Positions 1-53,495 of a stretch of DNA of 53,495 nt are shown one piece after another. The stretch spans positions 62,001 through 115,495 of the forward strand of contig CAUYUJ010000311.1 of assembly GCA_963575745.1 (NCBI GenBank), read 5' to 3'. Under the pieces are notes generated by a model, which was not told where the DNA came from, ran no database searches, and saw only the letters and a program-made list of their open reading frames with translations. The translations under genes and the position numbers were made by a program. The DNA comes from Prorocentrum cordatum. Lineage: Eukaryota. The stretch's first letter is position 1. Each line of letters starts with the position of its first letter.

Positions 1-13
1 GCCCGCGGGCACT

Positions 14-5399: not shown

Positions 5400-5497
5400 A
5401 CCGTCAGATCGTCGTCGTCGTGCTTCCCTACTGGGACCCGCACGCCTGGCGCCCCCCTGGAATCGCAGGTTAAGGGCCTTGCGTTCTATCGCACCGC

Positions 5498-7340: not shown

Positions 7341-7482
7341 ATTGCTCGGCCCATCCCGCCACGATGCCTGCGGGGGCCTCTTGGACCGTCTTGGGCCGTC
7401 TCGGGGCCCTCTTGGGCCGTCTTGGGGCCTTCTTGCGGGCCTCTTGGGCCATATTGGGTGATCTTGGGGGCCTCTGGAATCG
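7340..7482. repeat. Short copy of the 10-11 bp GC minisatellite element
   Basis: cggcccatcccgccac followed by cttgggccgtc repeats, as at 2338-2930. Confidence 0.8.
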
Positions 7483-7889: not shown

Positions 7890-7992
7890 TTTCGCGCGTA
7901 GGAAAATCGAGGGGCGACAAGGCCACGTGCAACAACAATAAGAGAAACGCAAAGTTATAACATATGGTTTCTCGGACCGTCTTCGGGGAAGC

Positions 7993-8098
7993 GGAGCCCG
8001 GAGCCCCCCGGAGCCCGGAGCCCGGACCCCGGAGGCCGGAGCCCGGAGCCCTGATCCAGGAGCCGGGGCCCCGGACCCCGGACCCCGGACCCCGGGCC
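7993..8098. repeat. 7-bp GC-rich microsatellite (GGAGCCC / GGACCCC)n
   Basis: Directly visible tandem heptamers. Confidence 0.85.
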
Positions 8099-9734: not shown

Positions 9735-12700
9735 TCACCTGCCAAGTTGTACGTGTATACACATCTCGGCAATGCCATTGAGAAGAGAATGTGCAGCTGC
9801 CAACTCAGCCTGTGTGATCGTGCAATGGCTAGGGATCATGAAACCTCTGCGGCCAACTCCAGGGTGCCATCCACCCTGCACAAGTCCAGGGGGAAGCTGG
9901 TGAGGAGGAAGAGAGGGAACAAGATAAACATCAATAACCCAGCCACACGAGGTGCCACGCTCACACCGCCCACCGTCAAAAGCTCCTCTAAGTGCACGAA
10001 CAATATAATGACCCGTCTAATATGATAAAGAGTGTTATGATTCCAACGAACATCAGAAGTTACTTTACCCTCACGTGCAAGATGTGTCTCATAGTCCGCC
10101 TCATCGTTGCCCTCCCTATACACCCATTTCCACATATCCCTTCCCACTTCAGCCGTGACAAGATGATGGTCCTCACTCATTCTGTGGAGGCGGTTCTGCA
10201 TACCCTTGATCGTGCGGCGGTATACTTCATTATGACAGCGATATCTTCCATTAAGCCAGCGCACAACACACTGGCTATCCCCACGGAGCTCCAAGCCATA
10301 TCCACCCCCTTCCCCACGCCAAGTGGTTTCATCATCATTTATCGCGGCCAGTCGTTTCGCCACCCGTTCATTTTCCCGTCGTTGCTGCTCCTCAGACTTC
10401 TCCTCCCCCTCCTCCTCCTGCTTGAACTCACCCGTGAAGGGATCCCGAAGAAGGCAGAACTCGAGAAGATCATCCAAGTCCAGGGCGGCCAGGGTACCCA
10501 CCAGGAAAGAACGCCAGCCAGTTTCATTCCAGACCATCGTGCGATCCCAATGAACCCCGCGCGTGTGCTCGAAGACCTCGAACCAAGGCCTGAGTCCCGT
10601 CAAGACTCGATGACGACAGGCTCTAGTAAACCTTCGGCCCCCAGGGAGAGCTCTAACATGTACGTCACGCTGCTCAGTCCACTCCCCCGACGCGTGCATC
10701 ATCGTCAAGGCGCTCTGCATACTGGCAGTGGGCAATCCTCCTTCCTCCTCCCGTGCATAGGTATGGCGTACCCGCTTACGAACAGGCTCATGTACATGTT
10801 GTGAATCGTGATGCTCATATGCCGTGTTCTCCGATATACGTCTGCGAACTGATCTACTTTCCAAGGAAGATGCGCTCTGTGCCTTTCTCCTACACGAACT
10901 GTTGAGCTGTCTGGCATTCGGGGTAGGCGAGGGAACCGATAACTCCAAGAAACGCTGCGAACCACCAAAAATATCAGGATCTCGTGGCTCATGATAAAGA
11001 ATGCCCTGACTGAGTGCGTCCTCATCCACCCGACTATGTTCCTCATGGATTGTGCTCACAACATGTTTGGCGAAGAGCCACTGGCGATGAAGGGCGAGCT
11101 GGACCATCGAAGGCTTACGGGCCCACTTCAATAAGCGACGGCCACCCTTAATCCTCCTGCCCCAGTACTCTCCCCAGGACTCCGTGATCTTCTTTTTGAG
11201 ACGTCTCATGGTGGACAAGAAGTTGCCTTCAGCTGCATGTATCTGTTGGAGACTACTCGAATCCAGAGTCGTACCCTCCAAGCCGTACAGAAAGCAACTT
11301 CTGACCCTGCTATCATAACGCTGAAACTTACAACGAAGCGGAACCACGGGCGACGAGTAAAAAGAAATCTCACTCATGAAGACCCTCCGTGCCTTCTCCA
11401 GTCGGTGCTTAATGTCGTCATGATCCTGAAATCGTACATCCAATAGCGTGCCGAGAACCTCCATCCTCTCCACCTGCTTCACTATCATCTCCTCCGAAGG
11501 GCCTGCGGCGCTCTGGGAAGCCCCACGAGAACGCTTCCTACCCATCTCAGCAGGCAGGAGCCCCGGCACAGGCAGGCGGATATCCTGCAATGGACCTTGA
11601 ACGCCACAAGCCAAGAACTCCATCGAAGATGCTTTCCAGTTGAAACCGAAGCGGTGGAGGACCCCAGTCAAGTCCTCAAGCATATGAGTCAGTTCTCGCC
11701 TGGAAGATGCTGCCAGCAAAATATTGTCTGCCCACAGCCAGTGGTTGACCAAGAGATTGGATGCCTCATCAGTGAGCCTGACGCCGTATCCAGACTGCCT
11801 CCAACCTGCCGTCACTGGTGCAAGCATACGAAGTGTCTGGGCAACAAACAGCAAAGGCGCCTCCAAGGAGCCTGTACGTATGCAAGTATCCCACGAGATG
11901 GTCGTAGAACACTGTTGGAAGCTGATCTCTGCCGTATTACAAGCATAACTCTCAAAGACAGCATACACAAGGGCAGGATGGACATGATGGAATAAAAGCG
12001 CCTCTGCTGCACATCTCACCGTGAAATTATCAAACGCCTTTTCAATGTCAGCACTTGCAAGATAAAGACTCTCCTCCTTCCCCCACACAACGCCGTGTTG
12101 AGCAAGACGTTTGAGGGGGGCCGTGACCTCATAACATTTGTGCCCCGCAATAAAGCCATATAAGTTGCAACCTGGCGGTGCAGCCTGCCGAACGCGGTGC
12201 TCTAGAAGTACACATAGACAACTGCTATACCACTTACCAAAATGAGAAAGAAGTGAGAGGGCCCGCGTTTCTTCAAAATCACGAGCCTTGGGATTCTTAG
12301 GCATCAAGCATACCAAGATCTCTCTCCAGGACTTCGGTGAAACATGTTTCTGATCGTACAGCAAACGGAATAAGGTAAGTATGTGTCGGAGGGCTTCCCA
12401 TGGCAATGCTTTGAGCACCGATGACGTCACCCCGTCTGCACCTGTTGCCCGTCCTTCCCTGAGTCTAGACCGTGCCTCCAGCAAGAGACCCATGTTGATC
12501 GGGTTGCGGTGGGGCTCTCCAGAGTCTCGCAGGGCCTTACACTGGTTCTTAAGCTCATCCAAGCACGCGTTGGTGTCCTGTCGGTGGGGATCGCTGGAGT
12601 ACCTCAGGAGCCCATGCCGCCGAAGGCCCTCAATCCACTTCTCCTGGTCACGCGTGAGGACCCCGTCAACATACATGTGCGTAATAACAGGCCTACGACG

Positions 12701-14002
12701 GACACCATCACGAATACGGTAAAGCTCACATGCACGATCATGACGCTTACGTACTCGACGCCACCTCCTTGCTGTCCCCTTGTACTCCTCCTGGACTCTC
12801 TCGTACTCCTCCTGTCCCACGTTAGCCCCGCCATATCGTGCCACCCTCCACCTCTTCCTGACCTTAAAGAACTCCTCCTTTATCAGTAAATCCTCCTCCG
12901 AATATCTGGGATAGTCTGAAACAGGCTGACCACGGGAACGGGAGATATCCAAAGTCTCACTGGCACCCTCAAGTATACTCTGTGTCATGACCTCAAAACC
13001 TACATCCGTGTGGATCTGATTCACGAGCTCGGGCTGGCAAATCGCTCTCTCCAAGCCGGCTGTCTGCTGGAGCTCGAACCCTGGCTGAAGCTTCCAGGTC
13101 TTGAGCTGAGGCCGACGTCGATACCTCAACTGAGCATGCTGGGCGGGCATATCGGCACACAAGAGCTTGTGATCGCTAAACGTCCTTTCCGTCGCCTCCG
13201 ACCGTGGGACCTGGGACGGCACAACCCAAGAACAAGTCACCTCTGGAGTCATCCAAGAAGCTGGGACCGCAAGATAATCATAGACGTGCTCGTATGTGCT
13301 CGAATTGTGTCTCCAAGTAGGCTGACGAGTCCCAAAAGTGTTGGCTAGCTGCAACTTGAGGGCCCCCATGGTCTTCAGAAAGGCCCCCGAGTACATCTCC
13401 CTCATCCTGTTGGCTCTACTTTCGTCACCTCCACTAGACCTCCCCCTCTTACGTATAGGCCCATTCACCGCCTCCCCCGTAACCTCCACCCCATTGATCC
13501 TGTGGTGCGGGAAAACCTCCACGTTGGCGTCAGCCGAGATAACAACCTCCTCAATGTGAAATCGCTTTTTGGCCGCAGAGACATGTGCAACAAGATCCGA
13601 TAACACGTCCGTATAGAGCTTGAAACTAGCAAGAAACCCTTCAGGAGAACGGCGTGCTTCACCCTGTGCACCCCGCTCAGACTCCTTATGAGGGAGATAG
13701 ACAGAAACGAAGATGAGCTTGCGAAAGATTGCAATGACCCAGCGGCGACCACACACAACATCGATAAGCAGATGTCTCCATACACCTCGGCACAAGATGG
13801 CAGCCCGTCTCCCCACGTTCTCCCCTTCATCTGCCGAGCGATGTATATCCCAACCCGCATCTGCAAGATCCAAGTCGTGTAAGAACTGGCTCTCTTGGAC
13901 CCCGACGATGGAAATCTTTAATTCGGCAATGTGATTCATGCACTCGGAGGTGTATCTTCCCAACCTCCGAACGTTCCAACCTCCAACAGAAGCTGGGCAC
14001 CG
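9735..14002 (-). CDS. E1 ORF2: APE endonuclease, reverse transcriptase and permuted RNase H; frameshift near 10000-10040
   Basis: GWNV, VQE, SVYLP, ADAN, YDYL, SDH (APE); ADIEKAFD, IRTGSLEAP, WADN (RT); GDSQ...REGNDEAD, then in a shifted frame RGAFDGG...TITQAELAAA ending at TGA 9735-9737. The frame is open up to the ORF1 stop at 14003. Confidence 0.88.
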
Positions 14003-15537
14003 TCACGAGCTGCTATTCACCTGCCTCTCCCAAGTCTTGCAGTCCAGATCTGGATCGATGTGCTGGACCCGCTCGGACACGAACTTCCATCCCACGGTAT
14101 CCGTCCACGTACCTACACACACTTTATCACTCTGACTATCCTTCTGCAGGTATGCCCAAGCCTTTGCAGGCCCTTCAGGCTCAAAAGTGATGAGAGCAGT
14201 GGCAACAGTCTTGAGCTTATGAAAGATCGCAGTCGCCTTGCGAGTCTCCCCCACTCTACGTCGGTCCTGTGGTGCCGGTTGGACAAACCAACCGAGGTGT
14301 CGATCTTTGCATGGTCCAAAACTATTCTGACAACCGACCAGATCAGGGCACGAATTGGACCAGGCTGAGGCCCACTCGTTGCGTACTTCCCAGACCGTCT
14401 CTTTCGAAGTCCCTGGCATGAAGTATATGCGAAACTTGGTCACACCAAATCGATTGGAAGCGATATCCCGTCCGTCCTACCTCTGTCGAAGATCTTAGTA
14501 ACGTCACTCTCCCGTGCTTGCGATAGTGTGTACAACTTACCTATCATGTTCCTAACCGTGGTGACCTGGATCTTGGCCTTATCTCGAGTTTCAACCTTTC
14601 GGGGGTCCTCTTGCGCGAAGCCGCTCACCTGGATCCAAGTCGGAACATGTGGTACAAAGGGTCTCTGGAAGTCAGCAGTCCGAGAATCACGAGTAGACGC
14701 ACCTCCCAGAGATGATGAATCTGCCCAGGGATCTCTAGAGTTCATCTGAGACTGAAGTGCTTTGATCTCTTTCGCCTGGGCCTCCTGAGCTGAACGAATC
14801 TCCTGCACCGACGAAGCAATAGGGGCAACCTGCTCTGATACCCTCGTTTGAATCTGCTCTTTGATGTCAACAGAGTTCTGCATAAGCATCCTCTGCATAT
14901 CTTCACGCATGGCATCGAACTGTGCACGGAGCATAGTGGCCAGATCTCCAGCATCACCTCCTCCTCCTCCACTACTACCACTTCCATTCCCACTAACTGC
15001 CCCACCTCCACCACCCTCGGCATCACCAAGAAGACGTCTATCTTCCAGGAGCTTCCTCTGTCGCTTCTCTCCGTTGCCCTCAGTTCCCATATCATCATCA
15101 GAAGTCGGAACCATCTTCCTCTTAAGATCACACTGCCCACAACTGGAAGTAGAATACCGATAAGCTCGACAAGTAGGGCACCTACTAGCCTCCAGATCAC
15201 GATAGTGTTCGTCCTCGAGTTCTTCAAGAAACTTATCCCAACCCCGTGAAGGTGAAAGTCGGTACGTGATGAAATCTGCTGCAACAAAAACGGTCAAAGT
15301 GTCCTTCTCAACTGCCAGAGCAAAACTGGTAAGTGCCGGGCTCCCAAGAGTATCACAAGCAAACAGCAAAGATACAAGTGCAACAGGTAGCGGCCTTGCG
15401 CCTCCAGCGGCACGTGTGGGCTCACCCGCTAACACGAGCAGAGTACAAATGCAGCGACCTATGCGCAGCACGTCCAGGAGGTTGCAGCCGACGAAGTACA
15501 CGAACTTATGGGCCAGCGCGCACCCACGCGCGCCCAC
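14003..15537 (-). CDS. E1 ORF1 (coiled coil plus putative RRM-like domain), frameshifted near 14440; start uncertain
   Basis: ORFs 14440-15537 and 14003-14443. A heptad-rich segment is followed by PTWIQVSGF, matching the motif in the E2-E4 ORF1 proteins. Confidence 0.7.
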
Positions 15538-16035
15538 GGCCGCCCAGGGGGCAGCCTGAGGAGACAGGCTTGAGGAGGCCCCCGACGGGCCAGGCCACCG
15601 CTGAGATCCCCGAGGAGGGACAGCAGCAACCTGGTCACCGCCGGGAACCTCGTAGAGCTCCTTACACTGGTCAGAGTCCTCAGAATCGAAGTGGAGTCAT
15701 AAAACAAAGATTTTCCTAAAATCTTGATTTTCGATTTTTTTTTCGATGTTCATATTGACTCGGTTCCGGGAAGTCAACTCTTAACAAAATACGTCGGGAG
15801 AGCTCAGCTGCTGTCAGAGAGAAGTTTATATGCCAATGCTCGGCGTAAAACTGCTCTCACAAAAAATGGTAAATATCTTTCAAATCTTAGCAAAACCGAC
15901 CCAAAGTCGTCACATATTCTTTTCTGGCCGGGTCGACCAACTAGCTCAACCCCGCGCCGGAATTCCTCTAGCTCATCGATAACGAAGAGCTCTACGAGGT
16001 ATATTGTTGTGCGTCGGCTTCGTCGCAACTTTTAC

Positions 16036-17360: not shown

Positions 17361-17805
17361 TTCAAAGTGTAGCCCGGGAATGGTGTTCTGAGAACTTGAA
17401 GAACACGCAGTGGCCCACAGCTGGCTCCGGACATTCAAAACTGGGAGCCGGCGCTAAACCGTCAACCAGATTACCTCCGGGACCCTCGTAGAGCTCTACA
17501 TAAACCAAGTCGGTTCACTGATAACAGCAGAAAAACGCTCCTCAAAACAAGCTAAAAGCAAAGATGTTGTTTCCGGTGTTACACAACGTTGGTTTCCCCT
17601 GGTCTTTTGACCGAAATAATACAGCTAGAGCCCTGAGGATTACACCATCGAAAGCGCCATGATTAACTGCATACAATAAAAATTCAAATTCGCAAAACGA
17701 ATTTCAAAATCTTGCAATCTTCGAAAATCCGATCCCAGGTCACCACATTGTCCGTCCCGGCCGGGTTGGCCAACTGGGAGCCGGCGGTAAACCGTCAACC
17801 AGGTT

Positions 17806-20149
17806 TTTGCGTCTTTTGCGAAGGCCGGTTCGAGCTCTCATGGGAGCAGGCCTAAACACAAAGAACCTAAACAGCGAAGCTGTACAGGAAGACAGCGAAG
17901 CTGCAAAGATTCAAGCAGAGGTGCATCAAACAGCGAAGCTGTACAGATATGCACAAGACTGCCAATACGCGAGAAGACAAATAAGAATAGAAAGAAGGAA
18001 GCAAAGCAGTGCGAGACCATGCAGTAACCACATATAGCGATCACCGTCTCAGCACCACTGAAAATAAAAGCAGTGAGAGACCATGCAGTAACCACTGGTT
18101 TATACAGCGATTACCGTCTCAACACCACTGAGACAGACACAAAACTAACAACTAAAAAGGACGAGTACACTTCAAAGCAATGCGAGACCATGCAGTAACC
18201 ACATACAGCGATTACCGTCTCAGCACCACTGAAAGACCATGCACGTGAAACACAACAACGAATTTGCGCCACCGTAGTGTCGACCAGATCAAAGGCCTAC
18301 TTTGAGGCACCACGTGACAAATCACGGAAAGTCACGTTCAAAGGTCAATGAGCACTCAAATCAAGGAAGCAACGAATGACCTACTTTGAGGGATCAAGCG
18401 AAGCTCTTATTCAACACACGCGCATGCACGACAACACACACATGCATGAAGAAAGGCAACGCAATGACAAATCAAGCGTGCAGGATCAATCACATGTGCA
18501 TCATCTGTGCCGTTTCCGATGCTTATTGCCGCTCCGCGTCAATACACTCCTGGAAGTAGAACTCTGAGGACCCCCTTGTTGCGAATCATCCTCCTCGGAA
18601 CTTTCAATTCCCAACTGCAGCCTGCATGCATTAAGAGCCTCAGTCCTACGCTGAAACTCCTGTGTCGGGAGTCGGTGTAGCTCAAGCCAAAGAGCCCTTA
18701 CATCGACACCGGCAAGGGCCCAGTCCCTGGCAGCTTGGCACTCAGAGCGTGTCTCACTCGGTCGATCTGCAGAACTCCCATTCATGGAACTCCCTACTGC
18801 ATCAGCTGAACTCCCAACTGCAGAACTCCCAGCTGTTGAACTCCCAACTGCATCCTCAACTGCATCAGCGGAACTCCGAACTGTGGAGCTTCCTACTGCA
18901 CTCCCAAGTGTTGAACTCCCGGCTGCACTGGAACTCCCGACTGCATCAACTGTACTCAAAACTGCGGCACTCTCCACCGCACTCCCGTTGGTCGCATGCA
19001 ATTCTGAAGTGTGCAACTTTGTATCCATCTTAGCAACTGCTTCACTATGAACATTATCCTCCTCCTCGTCCTTGCGGCCAGGGTTCGATGCCGCAGCATC
19101 AGCTGAACTCCAAACCGCGGTACTCCCAACTGCAGAACTCCCAGCTGTTGAACTCCCAACTGCATCAACAACTGCATCAGCGGAACTCCGAACTGTGGAA
19201 CTTCCTACTGCACTCCGAACAGTGGAACTCCCGACTGCGCAGGAACTCCCAACTGCAGAAGCATCACCCTGATCAGCGCGCACTCGATGACACTCCTCCT
19301 TCTCCTCCTTACCAACAAAGAGAACACAAAGATCAGTCTGAGTCCCACACTCAATGTGAACACAGGGATCTGTCTGAGTCCCACAATCGGAACACTGCGA
19401 ACACAAAGAGTTGCCAGCCAATTCAACAGCATCCATATCAGTCTGTGTTCCACAAGTGTACTCATACCACTCCTCTTCCTCAGAATCGTCCGAGCAGAAA
19501 TTCCGATAATATCTGGGCGCGAAAATGCCCGCGCGAACAAGGCACGACGGATCTGGCCCCCGAGCCGTGGACCACAAACGATACCTGACACGTTTCGCCC
19601 GCAGGCGGCGCAACTTCGATTGAGAAACTTTGACACCATGCCCATACAGCTGGTCTCGCTCATGCATGCGAGACTCACCTCCGTACGAAGGGCGACACGG
19701 CAATATAGATCACTAACACACACTTCGACCGTAGACAAACGAGCAGACAAACAAGCGAGAGACTCGGAAGTAAACAACGCCGTATCTGTCCAATCTGAAG
19801 CAAGAAAATCCGCGCCTGACAATTCAGATTAAACAAACTCCATATATAAAAACGTGGACGCGCTCTACAAGAAGGCAAATCACAAGCAATAACTAGATGG
19901 ACAGTTGAGATAACCAAGGAAAATGCTGTTCCAACGATACTCCGACAATCTCAACAATTATATGCCCTCCGACGACAATGGGCGTGGACAAGCCTTCGAC
20001 AATCAATAAGAGTGTACGGTACTCAGGCAAAACAGACACTGAAGCACCTTGTACGGTAAAGAGAACCAAACGCCAGGCACGGCACGATGCCGCTCGAGGA
20101 GGCCTCCGACGGGCCAGGCCGCCGCTGAGATCCCGAGGAGGGACAGCAG
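17806..20149 (-). mobile_element. Non-autonomous retroposon B, full length, with an E1-like 5' terminus
   Basis: Lies between CAACCAGGTT (17796-17805) and CAACCTGGTC (20150-20159). About 55 nt at the 5' end are nearly identical to the E1 5' end. The 3' stem-loop is shared with A, C and E1. Confidence 0.8.
18501..19703 (-). CDS. Hypothetical low-complexity protein in retroposon B (three CGTQTD, many AVGSS repeats)
   Basis: 400-aa ORF that is also open in copy C despite substitutions and an in-frame indel. Confidence 0.45.
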   Translation of the reverse strand: MPCRPSYGGESRMHERDQLYGHGVKVSQSKLRRLRAKRVRYRLWSTARGPDPSCLVRAGIFAPRYYRNFCSDDSEEEEWYEYTCGTQTDMDAVELAGNSLCSQCSDCGTQTDPCVHIECGTQTDLCVLFVGKEEKEECHRVRADQGDASAVGSSCAVGSSTVRSAVGSSTVRSSADAVVDAVGSSTAGSSAVGSTAVWSSADAAASNPGRKDEEEDNVHSEAVAKMDTKLHTSELHATNGSAVESAAVLSTVDAVGSSSAAGSSTLGSAVGSSTVRSSADAVEDAVGSSTAGSSAVGSSADAVGSSMNGSSADRPSETRSECQAARDWALAGVDVRALWLELHRLPTQEFQRRTEALNACRLQLGIESSEEDDSQQGGPQSSTSRSVLTRSGNKHRKRHR

Positions 20150-20159
20150 CAACCTGGTC

Positions 20160-23700: not shown

Positions 23701-26700
23701 TCACATCATATCCTGTCCGAAATACGCTTGTACAACCCGCGGCAAGATCATAATCGTATGCTCAACGGCCGAGACCTCGGCATCAGTCACTGTTGAAGTT
23801 GGATCAATCGAGAGTGCCGCACTGTACACCTCCGTCCAAATGATCTCATGGCTGAGTGGCTGCCTTGAGAGTCTCGATACCCTTCCAACATCTATCCAGC
23901 ACCCGACTCCCACGCCGTCGCAAGAGACACCACCATCGAATCCAGCTCTGATGGCACAAACGCGAAACACCTGTTGTAACTGAGGGGCGTGAAGCCCTAT
24001 CCTATCTCGAATCACTGGTGGCCCGACGCGGGCCGTATGAGTGAGTACATCTGCACGCGTGTTCCATTCTCTATATGTGTGGTCAACAATTTCCCTCCCA
24101 TGACAGGCAGGCCTAATTCCATATCTTTGACACATGTTGTCGAGTTGGTTTATCATTCTGTTGATCCTATCCTGATAAGTACGATTAAGCACCCTCCAGA
24201 CACCCTGCAGCCAAGACACCACCAGAAGACTGTCCCCCGAAATATACACAGGGATCCCAAATGAGTCGAGGTCGTACTCAACCTCCTTCATATTTTGTAA
24301 CGCAATACGTTTGGCCAGTTTGTGGTTGAACGCCGCAGTGCCCTCTTGGGCCCCATAGGTGTGTAGGTCGTTTTGTGTGATAGTAAGTACCTCCTGCGGG
24401 GCCCCACCTGTTGTACCGTACCCTTTTCTTTTCTGAAAATAACTCAGCATCGTCCGTGTACACATGTGCTCGCAGAACTGAACATACGCGGCATCTGTCG
24501 GCACAAAGGACCCCCACCATTTGAGTCCGTAGAATTCGCAGAAAGAAAATAGCCAGCATCTCTGGCCGACAGCTCGACCTGAACTAACATGTCCCCTTTT
24601 TAGCTGCGAAGCCTCTTGGAAATGAAACATACCCCGCAAGCACTCAGACGCATCCGTCCTGAGTCTGTCCCACAGTGGACCATACGCAACCGTAGTCATG
24701 TGGTGATCTCTCCACGTACGTTGCGTCGAAGATATTTCCTCATGAGAAGCAGTACACAACATAGAAATGAAATCAGCAGCATCCTTAGCGGAGTTCCACA
24801 CCATACGAAGAAATCGCTGCACCAAACTCGCAAATCCATAAGATCGAAATTGCTCTCTGGCCTCATGGTACCGTCGTCGGTTCCAGTCCGCCATAGTCTC
24901 CTCCTCTCTCCTCGGCCGTCGAAACATACGGCACAAACACCATCCCTCGAAGGCATTGAGCATGTGTAGCGAGGAAGTATCCGCAGTACATGTCTCTAGA
25001 CAATACAACGCCATACTCTGCACCTTGTCTTGATAACGGCAAAACTTGTCACGAACAGCTACCGCTCTGTTACGAAAGAAATTCGACTGTCCAATGAAAC
25101 AAGCTCGAGCCTCCTTGATGCGATATTCAACATCCGGATGAGCAGGCACTAAGTAGGTGGAGAAAATCTCATGCCCCAATACTTTCATTATGCAAACACG
25201 TCGAAGTCTAAAGCCCTGATGTCTCGAGCACGCAGGTATACACAAATCCTCGCTGGTAAGTATATGTCCGTCACCGTCCACTTTAGCATTTTCCCCACAT
25301 GTCATGTACAACAGGCTGCTATCCTTCCATCTCATCCCCCAGTCATGTAGTGGTAGTGTTAGATCGTGCATCATCTGAGCCAACACAGTTGAGGAGGCAG
25401 AGACAAGGTAGCAGTTGTCCGCCCACACAAAGTGGTTCACTATTGTCCGTCGCTCATACTCACCACAGACGCCCTCCAGCACATACCCCACTCCTCTACT
25501 GTCCCAATCCCGAAATATAGGTCCCCACATGGCACATATGATAAGATTAAAGAGAAGAGGCCCCTCAGGGCCGCCCGTCCGTATGCAGACGTCCCAGTTG
25601 ATGTCGTGAATGGCCATACCCTCGACAACTAACGACCCCGTAGTGCAAACCAGCGGTGATAGCAAAGCATACTGGAGATAGGCAGGAATATTGGCATGGC
25701 ACATAGCTCGCTTGGCGTTTAGAAGGCTGCAGTGGTCGAACGCTTGTTTGATATCGGCGTTAGCGATATGGACCGTCTGATCCTTTCCCCAGATGTCCCC
25801 ATGTTGAGCCAGAGCCTTGAGGGCCCCCACAATTTCCACCGTCTTACGTCCCTCCTGGAAGCCGTAGATGCCCAGGGGTCCCATGAGGCCAGCCCGAGAC
25901 ACAAATTGTTCGACCAAGATCACCACACAAGCAGAGTACCAACGGCTGAGACTGTTTTGCAGACAGAGGTACCGTGCATCTGTCAGCGATGTCAAGCTCG
26001 GCAGCTTGGGCATGAAGGCGATCAAAATGTTCCTCCAATCCTGCGGATACTGCCGTGCCAAGCGAAATATCTCATCAAACATCCGAGCAACGCCACGCAA
26101 AGTCGCCCACGGCAATGCCTTGAGGATTTCACAAGGCAGCCTGTCGGGGCCGGTGGCACGCTTGGACTTGAGACGTGACCGTGCCTGGCATACCACCGCC
26201 ATTGTCAGTCCCTCAGTGCAGTACCCGTCACATAGGTTCTGTTGTGCATCCCTCCTCAACTCCTCCAACATCGCCATATCCCGTCCTCTGACCTCCTCCG
26301 AAGTATACTTCTGTCTGGTATGTGCTCTGATCTCCTCCACCCACTCCTCCCTGTCCTCAGATATCCGTCCCTGCACAATGAGGTGCTTGATACCATGACG
26401 CTCTTTGCGCCTGGAGGCAGGAGAGGTCCACGCGGCCAACGCCGCACGATACTCCCTCCGCAGTCCGTTGGCACGTCTGCGCAAGCTGGGCACGTCCACT
26501 GACGCTGGCAGAGGCTTCCGTCGCAAAATCTCCTGGCAGGCCGTGAGCCCTGCAGGCCTAATTGGCGGTAGTCCCCGTCCCGTGGTGGCAGTCGTGAATT
26601 TGATATCCTCCTGCTCAGTACAGGCCCGAATAGTGGTCGACACAAGGTCCCCTGGAGAACAAGTAGTATTGGCATCTCCCAAGACCCGATCGATTTCCTT

Positions 26701-40924: not shown

Positions 40925-43900
40925 TTAAATCCGCCTCCTCCGCTTTGCAGAGGAAATTTCTTTAACGATGTGCTCCACACCTGTGCACAGGCGCTCGGCA
41001 GCAGATAATTCTGCCTCCGTCACGGTGGCTCCTACATCAAACATGTAGGCTTCTGAGCTCACGAGTGTCCACGGGCCATTCTCTGGAGCAACTTCGATCC
41101 AGTGACCTCCTGCAGCACCCTCACTGCTCACTCCACCATCCCAGCATCCTCTGATGTATTTGATGTTTGTCCTGTTCTGTTTGATATAGTCGTGCTTGTA
41201 AATTCTGTAACAGTTTCCTTCTCTCGCATGGTGTGTAAGCTCATCAGCATAGGCATTGGCTTCCCTATAGATATGTTTCCAGAAATCCCTACCGTACGTC
41301 GGGCATCGTATGTTGTGTTGTTCACTCACGTCATACATGATATTTTGTATCCTGGCGATCCGTTTGGCATACCCACTGTTGTCACAAGCCCAGACTCCCC
41401 TCAACCATTGTACGACCGTTTTACTGTCTCCGCACATTTCAACAGCGATACCTTCCATCCCAGGGTCCCATATCGTAGTCTGTTCATTAATAACTGCAAG
41501 ACGTCGGGCCAACTCGTCATCTGTCGGTGTCTTCGCAAACCCTCCCATCCTCCTCTCCTTACTCCTCCTCACAAACATATCCTCCACTTTGGGTATCTGT
41601 GATATGCGTTCCACAAACTCCTCCCAATCCGTCGGTACAACGCACGTGTCGTGCCACAGAAGAGACCTCCATTTTTCAAAGGGTGCATGCCAGCTGCTCG
41701 CCACGATTCGTGGTCTGCCTCTGAGCCGTCTCGTTCCCTCTCTCGACATCGTCCGACTTACTGCCGCCAGCATTTCATCCCTCTGCACCGTCCACTCCCC
41801 TGATACGTGCAACATGGAGCGCAGCGTCTGCTGCCACGATTTGCTGTACACCGTGGACGGCATGTGGCACTTATATTGGGATACCTCCACGGCGAATTCA
41901 AAGTTATACCTCACAACTTTCTCCACCAACGTTTTGAGCCCCCCCTCCTTGAACATCTCCCTGGATCTATTGGTACTGCGATCCCTGAACTCCTCCCACG
42001 CTTCCGTCTCTTTTCTATGTAATCCTCGCATTGTGTTCAAACATATTCCTTCAAAGCTCCTCAATATGTTCAGCACATGTTCATTACAGCTCCACCCCAC
42101 ACATCCATGGCATATGATCTGTTGAACTCTGCTCTGGTACCGTCTGAATTTTTCCCTCATGCTCACCGCGCGTGATCGATAGAATTTAATATCAGCATAG
42201 AAACACCGCCTGCCTGCATCAATACGGTGCCGCACTGCATGGAAATCCCTCGGGTTCGCCACAAATTTAACTCCCAGTATGTCACACTCGCTTTTTCTCG
42301 GCAGAACCACTGCCTCACGTAATTGATAGGGTAGGCTGGGGTCTCCAGCCCGTGCACAAATATCATCTCCCAGTTCACAAACTAATGATTGTGGTCCCTG
42401 GTTCTGTCTCAGCCCAAAAACCAGATACTCCAGGCTCTCAATCTTCCAGTCCATACCAGCCCGTCTGAGGGCCACGGTCAACATACTCACCATATTCCTC
42501 AGCTGATTCGCTGAGGCTGCCAGCAGCACCACATTGTCAGCCCATATGTAATGGTTGACCAGCGCCTGTTGTGTCCCCTCGCCTTCCAATCGTACTCCAT
42601 AATGACATGCTTCCCATGATTCAGCAATAGAGGCCCAAATTGCCTCCAACACAATATTGAAGAGCACTGGGCCTTCTTTCCCTCCAGTTCGCACCGACTT
42701 GTTATACAGGATCTCTTCACTGCACACATCCTGGAAATCAAAAACTGCTGTGTTTCCAATCATAGGCTCCACAATTGCAATAATCAAATATGTTGGATAT
42801 CTCAGATGTTCCATCGCGCGGATCACCATCGAGACAGTGACATGATCAAACGCTTTCTTTACATCCATTATCCCCATATGTACCGACTCGCCCTTTCCCC
42901 AGAGAGTGGCATGACGTGTCATATGCAGCAAAGGGGCCGTCATGTGATGAACTTTGTGACTCTTCTGGAATCCATATGTCGCCAATTCTTTGATATGTCC
43001 ATGCTCCTCCACAAGAATAAGAGGGCACGCCATGTACCACTTGCTCATAACACTCAACAGCGATATTGCACGAGTCTCCCCAAATGTTTGGATCATGCTC
43101 ATTTTTGGAATCAACTGTACGCACAACTTTCTCCACGAATCTGGTGACGACTTTTTCTGATCATGTATTTCTTGAAATGAGTGTCGTATCAATCTCAATG
43201 CATTCCAAGGTATTGCTTTGAGAAACTCCGCCACCAGGCCATCAGAGCCCGCTGCGGTGCCGCCCTTCAATCGGGCTCGAGCCCCCAGCAACACACCCAT
43301 AGATATGACCCTGTTCGTAGTTCTGCCCTCTGCCTCCCACTGTGTCCGTAGTCGATGCAACTCTCTCTTTGCAGCTCCTCCCTCCCCATCACATGTATAT
43401 GACCGTTGTACGTGTTTGTTGAGCTCCTCCACCCATCTTTGTTTATTTTCTGTCAGTATCCCGTCACACAGCATTTCCTTGATACACCTACGGGGTCCAT
43501 GTTTGAGGCCAGTGGAGTCCTTGAGGAGCTGTTCCCGCCTGAACTTTCTTCGGAGTGTTTTTTGACGTCTCAATAATTGTTTCCTACGCTCACCGAAGAC
43601 ACCCCTCCTTAACTCCGCTTCAACGTCCACGACTTGGTCAGGTTTTTTGATTGGTTTAGTATCCGCCCTGCCCTTTGTATGCCTACACATCGTCGCAGCA
43701 CTCACAAGCATCTGTCCCACTGTTTGTATATTTATGTCACCCTGTTGGTTCATATGTTGTTGTACCTGCACATCGGCCAGCGTACTGAACACATTCGCTG
43801 ACTCATAATCCTCCGGGGCCCAATTGATGAGGCTCGGGGGCCTGGGTCGCACGAAAGGCTTGCGCACCGACGCATGTTTTATCCTCACCCCTACCTTCGC

Positions 43901-44659
43901 ATGGTCACTGTAGCGTGACGCTCGATCCTGTGTAGGATCAACAAATTCCACCGTGCATTCAAATGAGCAGTTGGTCCGAGCCTCCTCGGTACCTGCAAAT
44001 TGTGTCGGCACAAATACATAGTCCAACACCCTGGAGTAGCTGCTGGTACTCCACGGCCTGTGCGTCACTTGTCGCACGCCGTAGGTGTTGGCTGCACAAA
44101 GACCCCAGTGATTCAGAAAGCGCACGAGCATGTCCCTCCTCTCCTCATGATGTCTCGCCTCCGACCTCATCCACACCTCCTCCAATCCTTCTCCCGTGAA
44201 CCCCAAGAGATTTGGTTCCAGCTCCGTCTGCGCACCTGCCCCCACAAACTGCAATACATTGGACCCCTGGTATTGCTCGCTACATAGTTGCATGCATGCA
44301 CACAGCTTAGCTAGAACGTCACAATATTCATCGAGCCTATCATCTCCCCGCTGCACTGTGGGTAGGTACACTGAGGACACGACCACAGATGCAAATTGTA
44401 CAACTGCAAACCTCTCACCGCACTTACTGTCCGAAATAGTCGCCGCCCATAGGCCCCTGAAGGCCACAGCAGCTCGTCGGCACACACTAAAACGCACCTG
44501 CCACCCACATGCTTCAAATGCTTCGGATAACATGTACTGACACTCCTGCAAGCATAGCACATCACAATGACAAAACTCCAGCATTGCTGGCAAAAGCTCG
44601 CTATTCCTCATGTTGACATTCCAAGTTGCCACCGCGAGCTGAGTGGCAGACTGGCACCG
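40925..44659 (-). CDS. E3 ORF2: APE, RT and permuted RNase H; the APE xDxN motif is degenerate (GAGAQ)
   Basis: ATWNV, LQE, SVYLP, LDY, SDH; MDVKKAFD, VRTGGKEGP, WADN; GDSKTVV...REANAYAD...WDGG...TEAELSA. Confidence 0.9.
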   Translation of the reverse strand, partial: RCQSATQLAVATWNVNMRNSELLPAMLEFCHCDVLCLQECQYMLSEAFEACGWQVRFSVCRRAAVAFRGLWAATISDSKCGERFAVVQFASVVVSSVYLPTVQRGDDRLDEYCDVLAKLCACMQLCSEQYQGSNVLQFVGAGAQTELEPNLLGFTGEGLEEVWMRSEARHHEERRDMLVRFLNHWGLCAANTYGVRQVTHRPWSTSSYSRVLDYVFVPTQFAGTEEARTNCSFECTVEFVDPTQDRASRYSDHAKVGVRIKHASVRKPFVRPRPPSLINWAPEDYESANVFSTLADVQVQQHMNQQGDINIQTVGQMLVSAATMCRHTKGRADTKPIKKPDQVVDVEAELRRGVFGERRKQLLRRQKTLRRKFRREQLLKDSTGLKHGPRRCIKEMLCDGILTENKQRWVEELNKHVQRSYTCDGEGGAAKRELHRLRTQWEAEGRTTNRVISMGVLLGARARLKGGTAAGSDGLVAEFLKAIPWNALRLIRHSFQEIHDQKKSSPDSWRKLCVQLIPKMSMIQTFGETRAISLLSVMSKWYMACPLILVEEHGHIKELATYGFQKSHKVHHMTAPLLHMTRHATLWGKGESVHMGIMDVKKAFDHVTVSMVIRAMEHLRYPTYLIIAIVEPMIGNTAVFDFQDVCSEEILYNKSVRTGGKEGPVLFNIVLEAIWASIAESWEACHYGVRLEGEGTQQALVNHYIWADNVVLLAASANQLRNMVSMLTVALRRAGMDWKIESLEYLVFGLRQNQGPQSLVCELGDDICARAGDPSLPYQLREAVVLPRKSECDILGVKFVANPRDFHAVRHRIDAGRRCFYADIKFYRSRAVSMREKFRRYQSRVQQIICHGCVGWSCNEHVLNILRSFEGICLNTMRGLHRKETEAWEEFRDRSTNRSREMFKEGGLKTLVEKVVRYNFEFAVEVSQYKCHMPSTVYSKSWQQTLRSMLHVSGEWTVQRDEMLAAVSRTMSREGTRRLRGRPRIVASSWHAPFEKWRSLLWHDTCVVPTDWEEFVERISQIPKVEDMFVRRSKERRMGGFAKTPTDDELARRLAVINEQTTIWDPGMEGIAVEMCGDSKTVVQWLRGVWACDNSGYAKRIARIQNIMYDVSEQHNIRCPTYGRDFWKHIYREANAYADELTHHAREGNCYRIYKHDYIKQNRTNIKYIRGCWDGGVSSEGAAGGHWIEVAPENGPWTLVSSEAYMFDVGATVTEAELSAAERLCTGVEHIVKEISSAKRRRRI

Positions 44660-46279
44660 TCAATTGTTCGTCTGTCTGGGCTTCGTGAGTAACCCCTCTT
44701 GATCCACCTCAGGCTCCACCCTCCTCAGATTATTAGTGTGTAGCGCCCACCCGCTGTGTACACCCCATTCAGCAATCAGTACTCTGGTGTCTGGATCTGC
44801 TTGTGGGTTTTGTGTAAACCATATGTATGATTTTGGCGGCCCTGGCTCCCCCTTGCATATTGTCCCCGTCGTTGTCTTCACTTCCGCAAAGCAACTCTGG
44901 AACTTACCAATCTGTTGGACATGGGGTGTTCTCCATGGCGCGCATTCTACATGAAACTTTACATTCGGTGGTAGGTCAGTGTTTCCCCTCTTGTATTCGC
45001 TGTCGAAACAATTCCGAACCTGCCATATGATCTCCACTGCCGTCCCCTTTTTGAAATAGATCCGCCCTCGTGTGTATGGCCAGTACCTGCCAGTATTCTC
45101 CCCCGCAGTTCTCGCATGATCAAAAGCAGCATTATGTGTTGCGTCCAGCGATGCCAATCCCAATAATTTTGTTATGTTGTCGGCCAGCACCTGTTGTTTC
45201 AAGGCCTCCCTTTGTTTTATCTCTCTATTCTTCCAACCCTCACGTGATATCCAACCTTTGAACTCAATATATGATGGTACCCAGTTCGAATTTGCCCTGC
45301 ACCACTGCCCGCATCACCTGATCCGTATCTAGTCGAACCGCTTGCGCAAGATTGAGCGTCTCCATTTTTCAGATTCTGAATGTCAGCTTGGGCCTGCTTC
45401 ATTTGCTCAGATAACGTTTTGACATCTGACGTTGATGGTACCCAGTTCGAATTGTGCCCTGCACCACTGCCCGCATCACCTGATCCGTATCTAGTCGAAC
45501 CGCTTGCGCAAGATTGAGCGTCTCCATTTTTCAGATTCTGAATGTCAGCTTGGGCCTGCTTCATTTGCTCAGATAACGTTTTGACATCTGACGTTGTTCT
45601 ATCAATCTTTTCCTCCATGACATGTAAATCAGCTGCAACCGATGTTTTGAACTCACTAACCGTCGCAGTTACTTCACTCTGGCCCTTCAAAATCTGTCTG
45701 AACATTTCCTCGGGCGTCATTGTAGCTGGTTGAGGCGCCTGGACAGCAGCACTTTGAGCTACGGCCAGACCACTCGTAGCCTTGGGGACTTGGGCTGTAG
45801 CTAGATGAGGCGCCTGGACAGCAGCACTGGAAGCCGCGGCCAGACCACTCGAAGCACTGGAACCTTTGCCCTCCCCTTTTCGCCCTCACCTCTCTCAACC
45901 ATTCACTACTCGCATTCCCTCCCATTTTGCTATCTTCTGCTTTGTCATCCGCCATGATTGCTGACGAACGTCGTTTATTTCTCTCTTTGACTGTACGCAA
46001 TGTGTGAAGTGCAGCCTGATATCTATCTGATTGCCCAATCTTCTTGAAATCGTACGCTTCCTGCTGAACAAATGCCTCTGGTGGAGAAATTTCCAATTCC
46101 AGTGCTATCTGATCTTCTCTCTTCTCCTGCGTCGTTAATCGCGGCACAGTAGCTGATGTGTCTTTCAACCAATCACACGGATGTGGGTCACAATCCACAC
46201 CAAAGTCAGCTGACGTGAAATATTCACTCTGATCGTCTTCTGATGGTATAATATATGCTCCCTGCGAGTCCGTTTTCAA
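44660..46279 (-). pseudogene. E3 ORF1, broken by frameshifts and an internal duplication of about 161 bp (45272-45432 / 45433-45594)
   Basis: ORF pieces 45674-46279, 45217-45720 and 44660-45202. Coiled coil and WVPSYIEFKGW motif across the shift. Confidence 0.75.
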
Positions 46280-46521
46280 TCCAACAGCCCACAGTGGTCT
46301 TTTGTAAAATCCAGACAGATCCTGATCTTCCTGCGATCCCCACGATATCTTGATATCAAGAACGAGAGCGAGGATTCAATGTGAACACAGCCCCCGCGAT
46401 ACGTCAAACACGCACCGCACGAGAGGGGGGCTCGAGGCAAGCCTGCGTGCGTGCCCTGACGTGGGCCCTGTTCGACGTCGAACCCTGACGTCTCGAACCC
46501 TGACGTCTCGAACCCTGACGT

Positions 46522-46548
46522 CTTGAGCCAAAATGGCTTGAGCCAAAA
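46522..46548 (-). other. Two tandem relict dinoflagellate spliced leaders
   Basis: The minus strand reads TTTTGGCTCAAG-CCATTTTGGCTCAAG at the exact 5' junction of E3. Confidence 0.9.
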
Positions 46549-47840
46549 TCTGCCAAGGTAACTTGAAGAATGCGAAGAGCTTTGCTGAGCTAGTCCGAGA
46601 GACAAACCGAGTTCAGACCTGGATGCAACAGACGAGCGCGCAGAATGATTTCGAATCAGTTTCTGTGCGCATCAGCTGTGTAGCTCTCTGACAGCACCTG
46701 TCAAGATAACTCGAACAATACGAATGGGTTTGCGAACCTAGCTCGAGTAGCACACCGAGTTCAGACCTCTGAATGCGACAAGCGGACGCGCCTCATGTCC
46801 GAATCGATTCCTGTGATTATGCCCCCTGCAGCCCCCCTACAGACCGATTTCAGTGCAGAAACCCGACAGCACCTCCCAAGATGACTCGATCAATACGAAT
46901 AGTTTCGCGAACCTAGCTCGAGTAGCAGACCGAGTTCAGTCCTCTAAATGCGACACGCGAACGCGCCTGATGTCTCCGAATCGATTCCTCTGATTATGAG
47001 CCCTGTAGCCCCCAACAGCCCGAGTTAAGTGCAGAAAACCGACAGCACCTCTCAAGATGACTCGAACAGTACGAATAGTTCGCGACCTAGCTCTGGCAGT
47101 AGACCAAGTTCAGAGCTCTGAATTAACAGACAAACGCGCCCGATGATTCTGAATCGGTTTCTGTAAGTATAAGCTCTGTAGCTGTGCTACAGCTCGAGTT
47201 AAGCACAAAAAACCGACAACGTCTGTCAAGATGACTCGAATAATACGAATAGGTTTGCGGACCTAGCTAAGCTAGCAGACCGAGTTCAGACCTCTGGATG
47301 CGACAGACGAACGCGCCTGATCATTCTGAATCGATAAGGTGTGCTTACCAGCTCAGTAGCTGTCCTGTATCTCGAGTTGAGTCCAATATACCGACAGCGC
47401 GTATCAAGATGACTCGAAACGGCCGATCCCGCCACAGTGCTTTTCGATAGTAAGATTCACCCGATCTAGCTTAGATCAAGATGGCGAGCGGGAATAAGAT
47501 CGAACATCACGGGAAAAAATACTAGAGCTCAAACGAATGTTCAAATTTTGAGAACATAATTTTCAAGAGAGAGCTTCTCGAAGCATTTCTCGAAAAATTG
47601 AACATTGATTTTGTAAATGTCGAAATCAAATTGGTTTCCCAAATTGTTTCGGTAGTGAAAGAGCGCCTAGAAAGCTCATACTAAGACGCTGGAGCTCTCA
47701 TAACCTTTTACAGGTGCGAAAAATCTGCTTTCTCAAAATGAATTGTCAAACGGCAACCGGCGGTGAACCGTCAACCAGGTTCTAGGCGTTCTAGGCGGGC
47801 CCTAGCAGGGTTAAGCTCCTTAGGAGCCCCAGACCCAGTC

Positions 47841-50800
47841 CTACAGGGGATATCCTGACAAACTCAGGATATGCACCACTCCTAAAAGGAGCTCTCGGGC
47901 AGCTTCTAACTCAGCCTCTGTGATAGTGCATTGCGCTGGGAGAAGGAAGCTTTTGAGACCTACATTCTGGCGCCAGCCAGTCTGATTATAGTAAGAAGAA
48001 GAGGGGAGAGCACTACACACATAGCAATCCAGATACCAGCCACAGCCTACACCAAGAATCGATCTCCCACCATCAAAGCCTCCTTTGATCCCCGAGATCA
48101 CAACTTTACAAACTTTCACTTCCTGAAGAAAACAAGTGTCATAATGTTCGTAACATTCACCTCTCCGCGCGGTCCACGTTAATTCATCGGCACGAGTATT
48201 GCCCTCCCTATACACCCACTTCCACACGTTCCGTCCTAAATTGGCAGCTCGTAGTCCACATCTGTCGGCTAGATCGTTTGTAGTGTCCTGCGCCCACATC
48301 ACGCGGCTAGCATCCTTTCTATTAGTGATACTACTCAAGCCCTCCAACCACCTGATCACACATTGTGAATCCCCCATCAGTTCCACAGAAATTTTCCCTG
48401 GCACGAACTCAAATTCAGTATGATCCTGGAATATAGCAATGAGACGTTTGGCAAACTTATCTGGGTCCTCCTGCTTCTTAATCGTCTCCTCCTCCTCCGA
48501 CTCCTTCCAGGGCATAGGGTCTTTCAATACACAAAGGTTCAACATCTCAGGAGCGTCCTTCAAGACAGTCCTCCCAAAGAATATCCAGCTAGCCTCATCC
48601 CAAGCAATACCGTCGATCCAGAACTTCCCCGCCACCTCTTCGAACACCCTGGCCCACGGACACATACCCAGAAGCTTGGTTGACTGTCCCCTGGCTCTCG
48701 TCACCTCCCGTGCACTCTGCGTGTCAAGAGTCGCAATAAAGTCATCCCGTCTAGCAGTCCATTCGAAACCTGCATGCAGCATGAGAAGCCTACTTTGAGC
48801 ACCTCGGTCAACATGCTCCCCTTCACGAAAACGAAGCTTTCTCCCTGGAAATCGACCCTGCTTCTCCTGGACCCTGGTCTGCAACCTGGACGTGTTCTGA
48901 GACAACCCTTCACAAGCACGTTTTGCCTCCCTGATGAGAGCACTCTTCCTCTTCCTCCTGTTTGGCTCCTCCACCTCCACCTCCATCATCTCCTCCTCCA
49001 CGCTCTTCCCAATCAACTGAGACCCTCCCGTTGCAGAGATGCTCGAGTCCTGCAGCGAGTCTGGCATATTTTCAAAGCACTCCGTGGCAATATCCTTGGC
49101 CCACAAGAACTGCTTGTGCAGGTACAGCTGGACCAAGGACGGTTTCCCTTCCTTGAGTAGCATCGAGCGCCCACGTCGAAACATACGTGTGATGAAGGTC
49201 GCGAAGTCCTCTCCGTTGCGCTTCTGGCGCCAGCACATGCGAGAGAGCATATTGCCCTCCTCCTTATGTAGAAGTCTCAAAACACCAATATCTGAAGATG
49301 AACCCTCAACTCAATAAAGAATCTGAACTCTCACTCTTGCATCATATATTTTGAATTTTCGTCGCCAAGGAATGACCATACTCTGATAATATCGTCGATC
49401 TCGCCAAAAAGCTGAAATACCTTTTTGCAGTCTGTATCGAATATCGTGATAGTCATCGAGTGTTCTATTCAACTTCGTGCCCAAAACGATGATCTCGTCA
49501 ACCTGCTTAAGTTCCACAGTGGTCTGGTTGACAGCTTCAGATGGCGACACATCCAGAGCCCCATTTGAACTTCCACACATATGGTTTCTAACACCCGAGC
49601 TTGAACTTCCACACATATGGTTTCTAACACCTGAGCTGGAACTTCCCAATCTCTCCAGTCCTGGTGGTGTCATGGTAACCGTGAGCGGGTCGAAGACATT
49701 CTTCAGCGCGCCAATGTCCATATACTCGAGCGAGGTAGGCTTCCATCTGAGTCCCCATGCATGTAGTGGTACAGTGAGCTGCCAGATCATCTCCCTCAGT
49801 GCTGGTCTAGAATCAGCAATCAAAACAAAATTATCCGCCCAAATGAAGTGCGAGATCGTAATAGAAGCAGCCTCATGTGATAGCTTCAGGCCTATACCTT
49901 TTTGTTCCCAGTCCGAGAGCACCCTGCCCAAACATGCAATCGTGACAATATTCCAAATATCAGGGCCTTCAAGGGACCCCGTTTTGATACATGAGCTCCA
50001 CGGTAGGCTTGCTGATTCCACTGGACCAAATCGAAAAGTCGCCGTTACATCTGCATTCTGCTCCAAGATCGCATACGCTAGCTCTGGGTCAACATTAATA
50101 TCATACATCGCTCTGTCTGCCATCGGTATCGTGATGTTGTCAAAGGCGCATTCAACATCTAGAACTCCCACACATGCATTCTCGTGCTTCCCCCAGAGCC
50201 TGGCGTGCCTAATCAAGTTCTTCAATCCTGCTGTTATCTCCCTGCATTTCCGTCCCTCATGAAATCCATACAAATTGATTCCCGTCCGAGGCGTATTCTG
50301 TTCAACATGACGATTGAGTAAGATACACAAACACGCCGTATACCATTTCGAAAGCACGCTATTGAGAGCCAAAGTACGCGTACTGGTGAACTCTGGCTTC
50401 TTCGTATCCTTCAAGATGAGTGTAGCTAGTAAGTTTCTCCAAGACGGCGGTGACTGCAATCGTCTATCATACAGCTGCTGGAAACAATCCAAGACCACTC
50501 TGAGGGCCTCCCAAGATAGGCTGCGTAAAAGAGCTGCTGATATACCGTCATAGCCAACTGCCTTGCCCACCTTGAGGCGAGCTCTCGCTTTATGTAGAAT
50601 ACTCATCGTGATGGGAGAAGAATCTGCATTGAGTCGAGTGTGCTGGATTGCTCGCTGCTTAAGTCGAGCCAAGCATTCTACATTTTGTTGATGGAGTGTT
50701 TGGCTGGAGTATTTCACCCGGGCGATTTTGGCGATTTCCGCTTTCCAGGACTCTCGATTCTCTGTCATGGTACCGTCAATTTTCATGTGTGTGACGACTG

Positions 50801-53448: not shown

Positions 53449-53495
53449 TTCTGGAATGGCAAGGTGATTACCGACGTATCTGGTTCCTGGACGAT

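Follow-up and report, generated by a model that had tools for sequence, protein, structure and literature searches.

The DNA considered here is a stretch of 53,495 nucleotides from Prorocentrum cordatum (contig CAUYUJ010000311.1, positions 62,001 to 115,495 of the forward strand), referred to in the following as the window. It reads as eukaryotic DNA and carries four elements, E1 to E4, of the long interspersed nuclear element (LINE) type, all on the minus strand (Table 1). Their second open reading frames (ORF2s) feature a LINE-type reverse transcriptase—Pfam family RVT_1 is found in all four, in E2 below the cut-off—and the best matches of the E3 reverse transcriptase region in the Protein Data Bank (PDB) are human LINE-1 ORF2 protein (8c8j_A, E 2e-5) and R2 proteins. 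The endonuclease family Exo_endo_phos reaches 21.3 bits in E3 (cut-off 24.5) and covers residues 2–45 only. The four ORF2s share a pairwise identity of only 27–34% and, hence, represent four old, separate families of one clade. The subject of this work is the C-terminal end of these proteins, which probably folds as a circularly permuted ribonuclease H (RNase H).

Table 1. Positions of the LINE ORF2s, of their predicted RNase H halves and of the RNase H motifs in the window.
Feature	Position	Strand	Basis
E1 ORF2 frame, 1375 amino acids (aa); only the first RNase H half lies in this frame	9836..13963	minus	RVT_1 32.6 bits
E2 intact LINE ORF2, 1287 aa	23701..27564	minus	RVT_1 27.3 bits, below cut-off 29.6
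E3 intact LINE ORF2, 1235 aa: endonuclease-like N-terminus, reverse transcriptase, predicted C-terminal permuted RNase H	40925..44632	minus	RVT_1 55.2 bits
E4 final open piece of ORF2, 479 aa	47841..49280	minus	ORF list, translation
E4 upstream pieces in other frames; element runs off the window	49311..50942 (reverse transcriptase), 50902..52146, 52189..53493	minus	RVT_1 33.8 bits in 49311..50942
E1 RNase H first half (GDSQCVV...REGNDEAD)	10094..10321	minus	RVT_3 17.0 bits, profile 63–117
E1 RNase H last half (FDGG...TQAELAA), frame differs from first half	9762..10001	minus	motif mapping
E2 RNase H first half (GDSLLVV...REWNTRAD)	24025..24276	minus	motif mapping, conservation
E2 RNase H last half (FDGG...TDAEVSA)	23725..23964	minus	motif mapping, conservation
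E3 conserved helix before strand 4, model residues 44–56, DDELARRLAVINE	41483..41521	minus	pLDDT 91–96
E3 RNase H first half: strand 4 (GDS, D75), helices B/D, strand 5, helix E (RExNxxAD, D136)	41213..41470	minus	AlphaFold2, hhalign, conservation, 3u3g alignment
E3 linker between helix E and strand 1; model residues 148–159 form a short additional strand and helix	41171..41212	minus	strand 148–151, helix 153–159, pLDDT ~97
E3 RNase H last half: strands 1–3 (WDGG, D171), helix A (TEAEL, E214)	40958..41170	minus	AlphaFold2, hhalign, conservation
E4 RNase H first half (GDSQCVI...REGNTRAD)	48159..48410	minus	motif mapping, conservation
E4 RNase H last half (FDGG...TEAELEA)	47862..48098	minus	motif mapping, conservation
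E1 motifs in ORF2 frame: GDSQCVV; REGNDEAD	10262..10282; 10094..10117	minus	translation, motif mapping
E1 motifs in second frame (open stretch 9738..10016): FDGG; TQAELAA	9969..9980; 9795..9815	minus	translation, motif mapping
E2 motifs: GDSLLVV; REWNTRAD; FDGG; TDAEVSA	24217..24237; 24049..24072; 23929..23940; 23767..23787	minus	translation, motif mapping
E3 motifs: GDSKTVV; REANAYAD; WDGG; TEAELSA	41411..41431; 41243..41266; 41132..41143; 41000..41020	minus	translation, motif mapping
E4 motifs: GDSQCVI; REGNTRAD; FDGG; TEAELEA	48354..48374; 48186..48209; 48066..48077; 47901..47921	minus	translation, motif mapping

All four ORF2s end in the same succession of motifs: GDS...RExNxxAD comes first and is followed by [FW]DGG...TxAE. 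The motif strings, their order and their coordinates, as given for E2, E3 and E4 in a preliminary description of this DNA made from the sequence, are exact in the translations. The same order had been claimed for E1 across a frameshift, and here the GDS and RExNxxAD motifs indeed occupy a different frame from FDGG and TxAE, which places one frameshift at about 10016–10040, in the linker between the halves. When the 53.5-kb window is translated in all six frames, exactly four RExNxxAD motifs appear, and each of the E1–E4 ORFs has one of them at its end. The four catalytic carboxylates—D171, E214, D75, and D136 in the numbering of the last 241 residues of E3 (window 40928–41650)—are present in four of four copies. 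With only 27–34% identity among the ORF2s, the common motif order does not stem from recent copying.

An exhaustive search of 1.84 billion representatives yielded 218 proteins at E <= 0.001, and the order of the halves was analyzed in the best 150 of these 218. Both halves are detected in 112 relatives (domain E <= 0.001); the order is swapped in 112 of 112 and canonical in none. The others carry the first half only (28), the last half only (6), or neither (4), and the 28 are fragments, since all of them end within 47 residues after the first half. The relatives are 20–46% identical to E3, and the clade comprises no fewer than 218 clusters (50% identity level), the identity between its ORF2s falling as low as about 27%. 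Among the residues present, D75 is conserved in 112/116, D136 in 127/130, D171 in 115/116, and E214 in 97/97; of the RExNxxAD motif, E130 (125/132) and N132 (130/131) are kept as well. Strict conservation of these residues at such low overall identity indicates, as judged by sequence, purifying selection on the active site. The retention of all four acidic residues, likewise part of the preliminary description, hence extends from the four window copies to 97–100% of the residues present in the relatives.

These counts bear on a first alternative, namely that the permuted RNase H fold is genuine but no longer an enzyme and serves as a nucleic acid-binding or structural module of the ORF2 protein. 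Degenerate RNase H-like "connection" or "tether" domains serve such roles in other retroelements. The linker and the extra strand–helix at model residues 148–159 could disturb the active site, the Pfam scores are low in all copies, and the activity and site geometry of the domain are predicted only. However, degenerate domains typically lose their carboxylates, which are kept here together with E130 and N132, and a domain without activity is considered improbable.

The relatives come from metagenome and run assemblies, and a cluster look-up of 10 of them returned "hypothetical protein" as the only name. A word-indexed homologue search with residues 990–1235 of P0002 gave no match among proteins of 679–2162 aa. 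The E3 stretch is partly found in 20 sequencing runs—7 of them with at least half of its words—that are mostly labeled as marine or other aquatic metagenomes, a word-level match that is not evidence of habitat; no RNA run is among the runs listed, which at the same word level is not evidence on expression. In E3 and its closest relatives (P0014, P0037, P0042, and P0032), helix A ends in a basic tail, SAKRRRRI or similar (40928–40954 in E3), that might act in nuclear localization or nucleic acid binding; E2 and E4 are devoid of it.

The homology of each half to canonical RNase HI was determined by profile–profile comparison with hhalign. For this, the family alignment A3 of 66 sequences was cut into a first-half and a last-half profile and compared with an alignment of 125 canonical RVT_3-type RNase HI sequences, consisting of five genes, taken from 5 of 301 bacterial genomes, and 120 relatives of one of them. 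The first half aligns with the canonical C-terminal half (probability 96.1%, P 3.1e-9) and the last half with the canonical N-terminal half (83.3%, P 8.6e-6, 65 columns), with FDGG placed over DGS and AEL over AE. None of 100 column shuffles per half-profile reaches the observed score (first half 54.2 versus a maximum of 23.9; last half 34.0 versus 15.2), and the reversed half-profiles score 13.1 and 15.2, respectively. A canonical template of 5 sequences repeats the pairing with probabilities of 96.9% for the first and 52.0% for the last half. The pairing is faint with an Escherichia coli-type RNase HI template (P 0.0089 and 0.0049), which is shallow, as the homologue search with RnhA and a contig scan gave only relatives at least 75% identical. 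Against PDB sequences, a 3-sequence profile aligns the GDS...RExNxxAD region to residues 59–134 of LC11-RNase H1 (3u3g, E 0.0013).

The Pfam matches reflect the same arrangement. E3 matches RVT_3 with 25.1–25.6 bits (cut-off 21.6) at ORF2 residues 1022–1136, profile positions 19/20–117/123; E2 and E4 have no RVT_3 row, and E1 reaches 17.0 bits with its first half. No window copy matches the profile end to end, as is expected if the halves are swapped. Among 78 relatives, 35 have an RVT_3 row at E <= 0.05. In 33 of these 35, the best stretch, roughly profile 55–123, lies before or at RExNxxAD; in the remaining two, P0095 (21.8 bits, profile 2–57) and P0153 (18.1 bits, profile 2–52), it lies after this motif. 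In P0141, profile positions 2–56 are matched at residues 488–544 with 28.4 bits (cut-off 21.6), after RExN at 448, and in P0077 positions 6–56 of PF00075 are matched after its RExN (E 0.038). Matches in the form of two swapped half-domains, as anticipated in the preliminary description, are thus seen in the RVT_3 rows of the relatives. In a language-model look-up, the domain falls among RVT_3/RNase_H clusters with a best score of 0.93, which is a lead only.

The possibility that RNase H ancestry is confined to the first half, with an unrelated β-hairpin-plus-helix module making up the last 80 residues and its DGG and AE having arisen by chance or convergence, is considered very unlikely. It would accord with the missing Pfam match of the last half in the four window copies, with the lack of RNase H in the PDB sequence searches, and with an hhalign probability of 83% instead of above 95%. 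Yet the hhalign match has a P of 8.6e-6 and the correct register over its 65 columns, with 0 of 100 shuffles coming near; the stretch in question matches RVT_3 2–57 in P0141, P0095, and P0153 and PF00075 6–56 in P0077; and its predicted strands and helix correspond exactly to the N-terminal half of RNase H.

The AlphaFold2 model of the last 241 residues of E3, calculated with alignment A3, features one compact domain with a mean predicted local distance difference test (pLDDT) of 91.2 and a predicted template modeling score (pTM) of 0.81. The first ~40 residues are poorly ordered. The domain begins with a helix (44–56), followed by strand 4 (68–74), which ends at GDS, two helices (77–84 and 92–112), strand 5 (124–126), and helix E (129–143) carrying D136. 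After a short strand (148–151) and a helix (153–159), the chain continues with strands 1–3 (165–175, with D171; 178–188; and 195–203) and ends in helix A (210–240, with E214). The last half, therefore, is modeled as three long antiparallel strands and a long helix starting at the invariant Glu, as in the N-terminal half of RNase H, and all four catalytic residues are located on the same elements as in canonical RNase H. A 441-aa model of the E3 C-terminal end repeats the same elements, and the canonical chain order (strands 1-2-3, helix A, strand 4, helices B–D, strand 5, helix E) is seen in neither model. A single confident domain with RNase H elements in permuted order is what the preliminary description had led one to expect of this region.

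Since the pTM is 0.81 despite ~40 disordered residues, the two halves would be confidently placed against each other. This bears on an arrangement in which the halves pair between two ORF2 molecules as a domain-swapped dimer, or with a partner half elsewhere in ORF2. Such an arrangement is compatible with the sequence, and dimeric action has been suggested for the ORF2 proteins of some LINE clades; but the model puts both halves into one confident unit, and each ORF2 has one copy of each half with no extra half upstream, which makes pairing of this kind the least expected of the alternatives.

A Foldseek search of the E3 model against the PDB returned no RNase H, its best rows being PelC and ribosome hibernation factors with TM scores of 0.2–0.3. 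With VIA-align (48,161 chains), RNase H is matched over model residues 57–148 only: 3u3g_D with a Z score of 4.0 and an rmsd (root mean square deviation) of 4.6 over 82 aligned residues at 27% identity, 4e19_A with a Z score of 3.6, and 3aly_B with a Z score of 3.6. A partial match of this kind is what aligners bound to sequence order should give for a permutant; it is neither proof of permutation nor evidence of a different fold.

In the 441-aa model, the 267 residues before the GDS strand of E3 form twelve helices and no strand, and the last-half hidden Markov model (HMM) finds a single significant match per long ORF2, all others having an i-E of at least 0.5. A hidden canonical N-terminal half is thereby ruled out, in agreement with the claimed absence of an FDG/AE half upstream of GDS. 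Duplication followed by trimming is the textbook route to circular permutation. This origin, which had also been proposed for the present domain, finds no support: there is no tandem RNase H intermediate among the best 150 of the 218 relatives and no likeness of upstream residues to helix A. For the latter, the helix before strand 4 was considered as a relic of helix A and rejected, as hhalign gave a P of 0.81 with the family helix A and of 0.45 with canonical RNase HI in what is a weak comparison of a short segment.

Each half thus occurs in one copy and has its homologue in the opposite half of canonical RNase HI. Most probably, E1 to E4 are LINE (non-long terminal repeat) retrotransposons whose ORF2 protein ends in a type-1 RNase H of the archaeal/plant "RVT_3" type that is a natural circular permutant, with one fold and the usual four carboxylates. 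The permuted domain put forward in the preliminary description is supported by the homology of the halves, the swapped Pfam rows, the strictly kept order in 112 of 112 two-half relatives together with the conserved D-E-D-D positions, and the confident single-domain model. Several observations weigh against it. The half-HMMs were built from 66 of the same relatives, so that the order counts locate the halves and are not proof of homology. In Pfam, only E3 of the four window ORF2s passes the RVT_3 cut-off, and the last halves alone give a match at E <= 10 in none of the four window copies. With last-half profiles of 4 and 23 sequences, the PDB sequence searches recovered no RNase H over that part, only the RExNxxAD stub matching 3u3g/4h8k (E 0.38). 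The homology of the last half rests on the profile–profile comparison (83%) and the Pfam rows of three to four relatives. Neither Foldseek nor VIA-align gives a whole-domain RNase H match, and the best whole-domain rows of the latter are generic α/β folds with Z scores of at most 5.5. The meeting of D75, D136, D171, and E214 in one active site is a prediction. Of the four window copies, two are disrupted—E1 through the frameshift inside the domain and E4 through broken frames upstream—and that the domain functions as an enzyme is inferred from conservation only.

For the permuted domain, the following path can be proposed. The chain would enter at strand 4 (GDS) and run through helices B/D and strand 5 into helix E (RExNxxAD); a linker of ~25 residues would lead from there into strands 1–3 (xDGG), and the chain would end with helix A (TxAE). 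Both halves would fold into one RNase H-like α/β domain, in which the carboxylates D171 (strand 1), E214 (helix A), D75 (strand 4), and D136 (helix E) may bind two metal ions. In the known RNase H fold, three places face away from the active site: the loop connecting helix A with strand 4, the beginning of strand 1, and the terminal part of helix E. Opening the chain at this loop and joining the other two places by the linker of ~25 residues should, therefore, leave the site intact. The tether to the rest of the ORF2 protein would enter at strand 4 via the conserved helix instead of at strand 1. Two-metal hydrolysis would be directed at the RNA strand in the RNA:DNA hybrid that the element's reverse transcriptase produces during target-primed reverse transcription, and the role of the domain would presumably be removal of the template RNA.

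The closest known relatives are the archaeal/plant-type RNases HI (RVT_3, PF13456), such as LC11-RNase H1 (3u3g) and those of Sulfolobus tokodaii (3aly) and Halobacterium (4e19). They share with the LINE domain the motifs DG[GS], AE, GDS, and RExNxxAD and the same secondary structure elements; both halves align by profile, and the first half is 27% identical to 3u3g. The LINE domain features four differences: the swapped order of the halves along the chain; the ~25-residue linker between helix E and strand 1 with its extra strand and helix; the conserved extra helix before strand 4; and the failure of order-bound fold searches to find the family as a whole. An RNase H at the ORF2 C-terminus is known in the LINE clades I, Tad1, LOA, and Ingi and in plant L1; to our knowledge, all of these have the canonical order. 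As in E1 to E4, the domain follows the reverse transcriptase and a helical region in these clades and presumably serves the same role in target-primed reverse transcription. Human LINE-1 ORF2 protein and R2 (PDB 8c8j, 8sxt, and 8gh6) have a reverse transcriptase core homologous to that of E3 (E 2e-5 to 1.5e-3); as far as we know, they lack an RNase H domain, whereas E1 to E4 have one, in permuted form.

In full-text searches of the literature, no report of a retrotransposon with a permuted RNase H was encountered. A natural circular permutation between two RNase H-like domains, recognized by comparing structures across AlphaFold database clusters, is given as novel in CIRPIN (2025–26; PMC13552848, Fig. 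5D). This case resembles the LINE domain in being a natural circular permutation within the RNase H-like fold; the passages in question name no protein, organism, or retroelement, and the case may belong to the same family as the LINE domain or to another. The chances are about even that the present domain is the first described natural, catalytically active circular permutant of a type-1 RNase H domain, fixed in an old and diverse LINE clade of aquatic microbial eukaryotes.

Few folds have been studied as thoroughly in enzymology and protein folding as that of RNase H, which is also a core module of all retroelements. A natural permutant long kept in many lineages would mean that the fold can accommodate chain ends placed between helix A and strand 4 and would be the evolutionary counterpart of engineered permutants. 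As Pfam detects a half domain and Foldseek no RNase H, the RNase H of such elements would be recorded as truncated or as absent. The presence, absence, and phylogeny of RNase H are used to classify LINE clades, so that mis-scoring matters for classification. If the permutation is true, moving the tether from strand 1 to strand 4 may also alter the positioning of the nuclease site with respect to the polymerase site.

Putative ORF1s lie directly upstream of the ORF2s of E2 (27673–29127), E1 (14440–15537), and E3 (44660–46279), all on the minus strand; that of E3 is broken across three frames. They match no Pfam family, save for weak coiled-coil-type rows in 45217–45720.

Three of the divergent LINEs—E1, E2, and E4—are inserted at one spot, the loop of a conserved hairpin GCTCTACGAG.CCCCCGGCGGTAA-(GAAA/GGAA/CCT)-GGTTGACGGTTTACCGCCGG. 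The junctions at the hairpin are located at 23484–23513 and 29146–29179 for E2, at 15620–15658 for the 5′ end of E1, and at 47759–47776 for the 3′ end of E4. The common spot suggests a site-specific LINE clade. The full-length insertion of E2 features a clean target-site duplication of 10–12 bp, GGAAGGTTGA, at both ends and an A-rich 3′ end (...GCAAAAAA), the two together being shown for E2 only. A right hairpin arm without its left arm at 17783–17800 looks like a further 3′ junction. E3 is not at the hairpin site, as the hairpin downstream of it (40640–40685) is intact.

The LINEs are embedded in an array of repeat units of ~0.9–1.4 kb with 79–90% mutual identity (29264–30067, 32579–40526, and 46690–47566), each of which bears the hairpin. 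With at most 2 mismatches allowed, the 18-mer GGTTGACGGTTTACCGCC is found 18 times (17 on the minus strand), versus 0 expected. Whole-window scans found no Rfam family and no transfer RNA. Two further stretches about 2.3 kb apart, 19024–19703 and 21353–22033, are 97.5% identical over 681 bases and sit within the minus-strand ORFs 18501–19703 (400 aa) and 20689–21996 (435 aa), neither of which matches Pfam. The GC content is ~0.50 over most of the window and 0.60–0.66 in the first 8 kb. Positions 1–8000 also have a positive GC skew, versus a negative one in the remainder, and carry many overlapping ORFs on both strands, those tried being without a Pfam match. This region features internal repeats at 741–1372/1660–2325 and 4380–5052/4713–5383.

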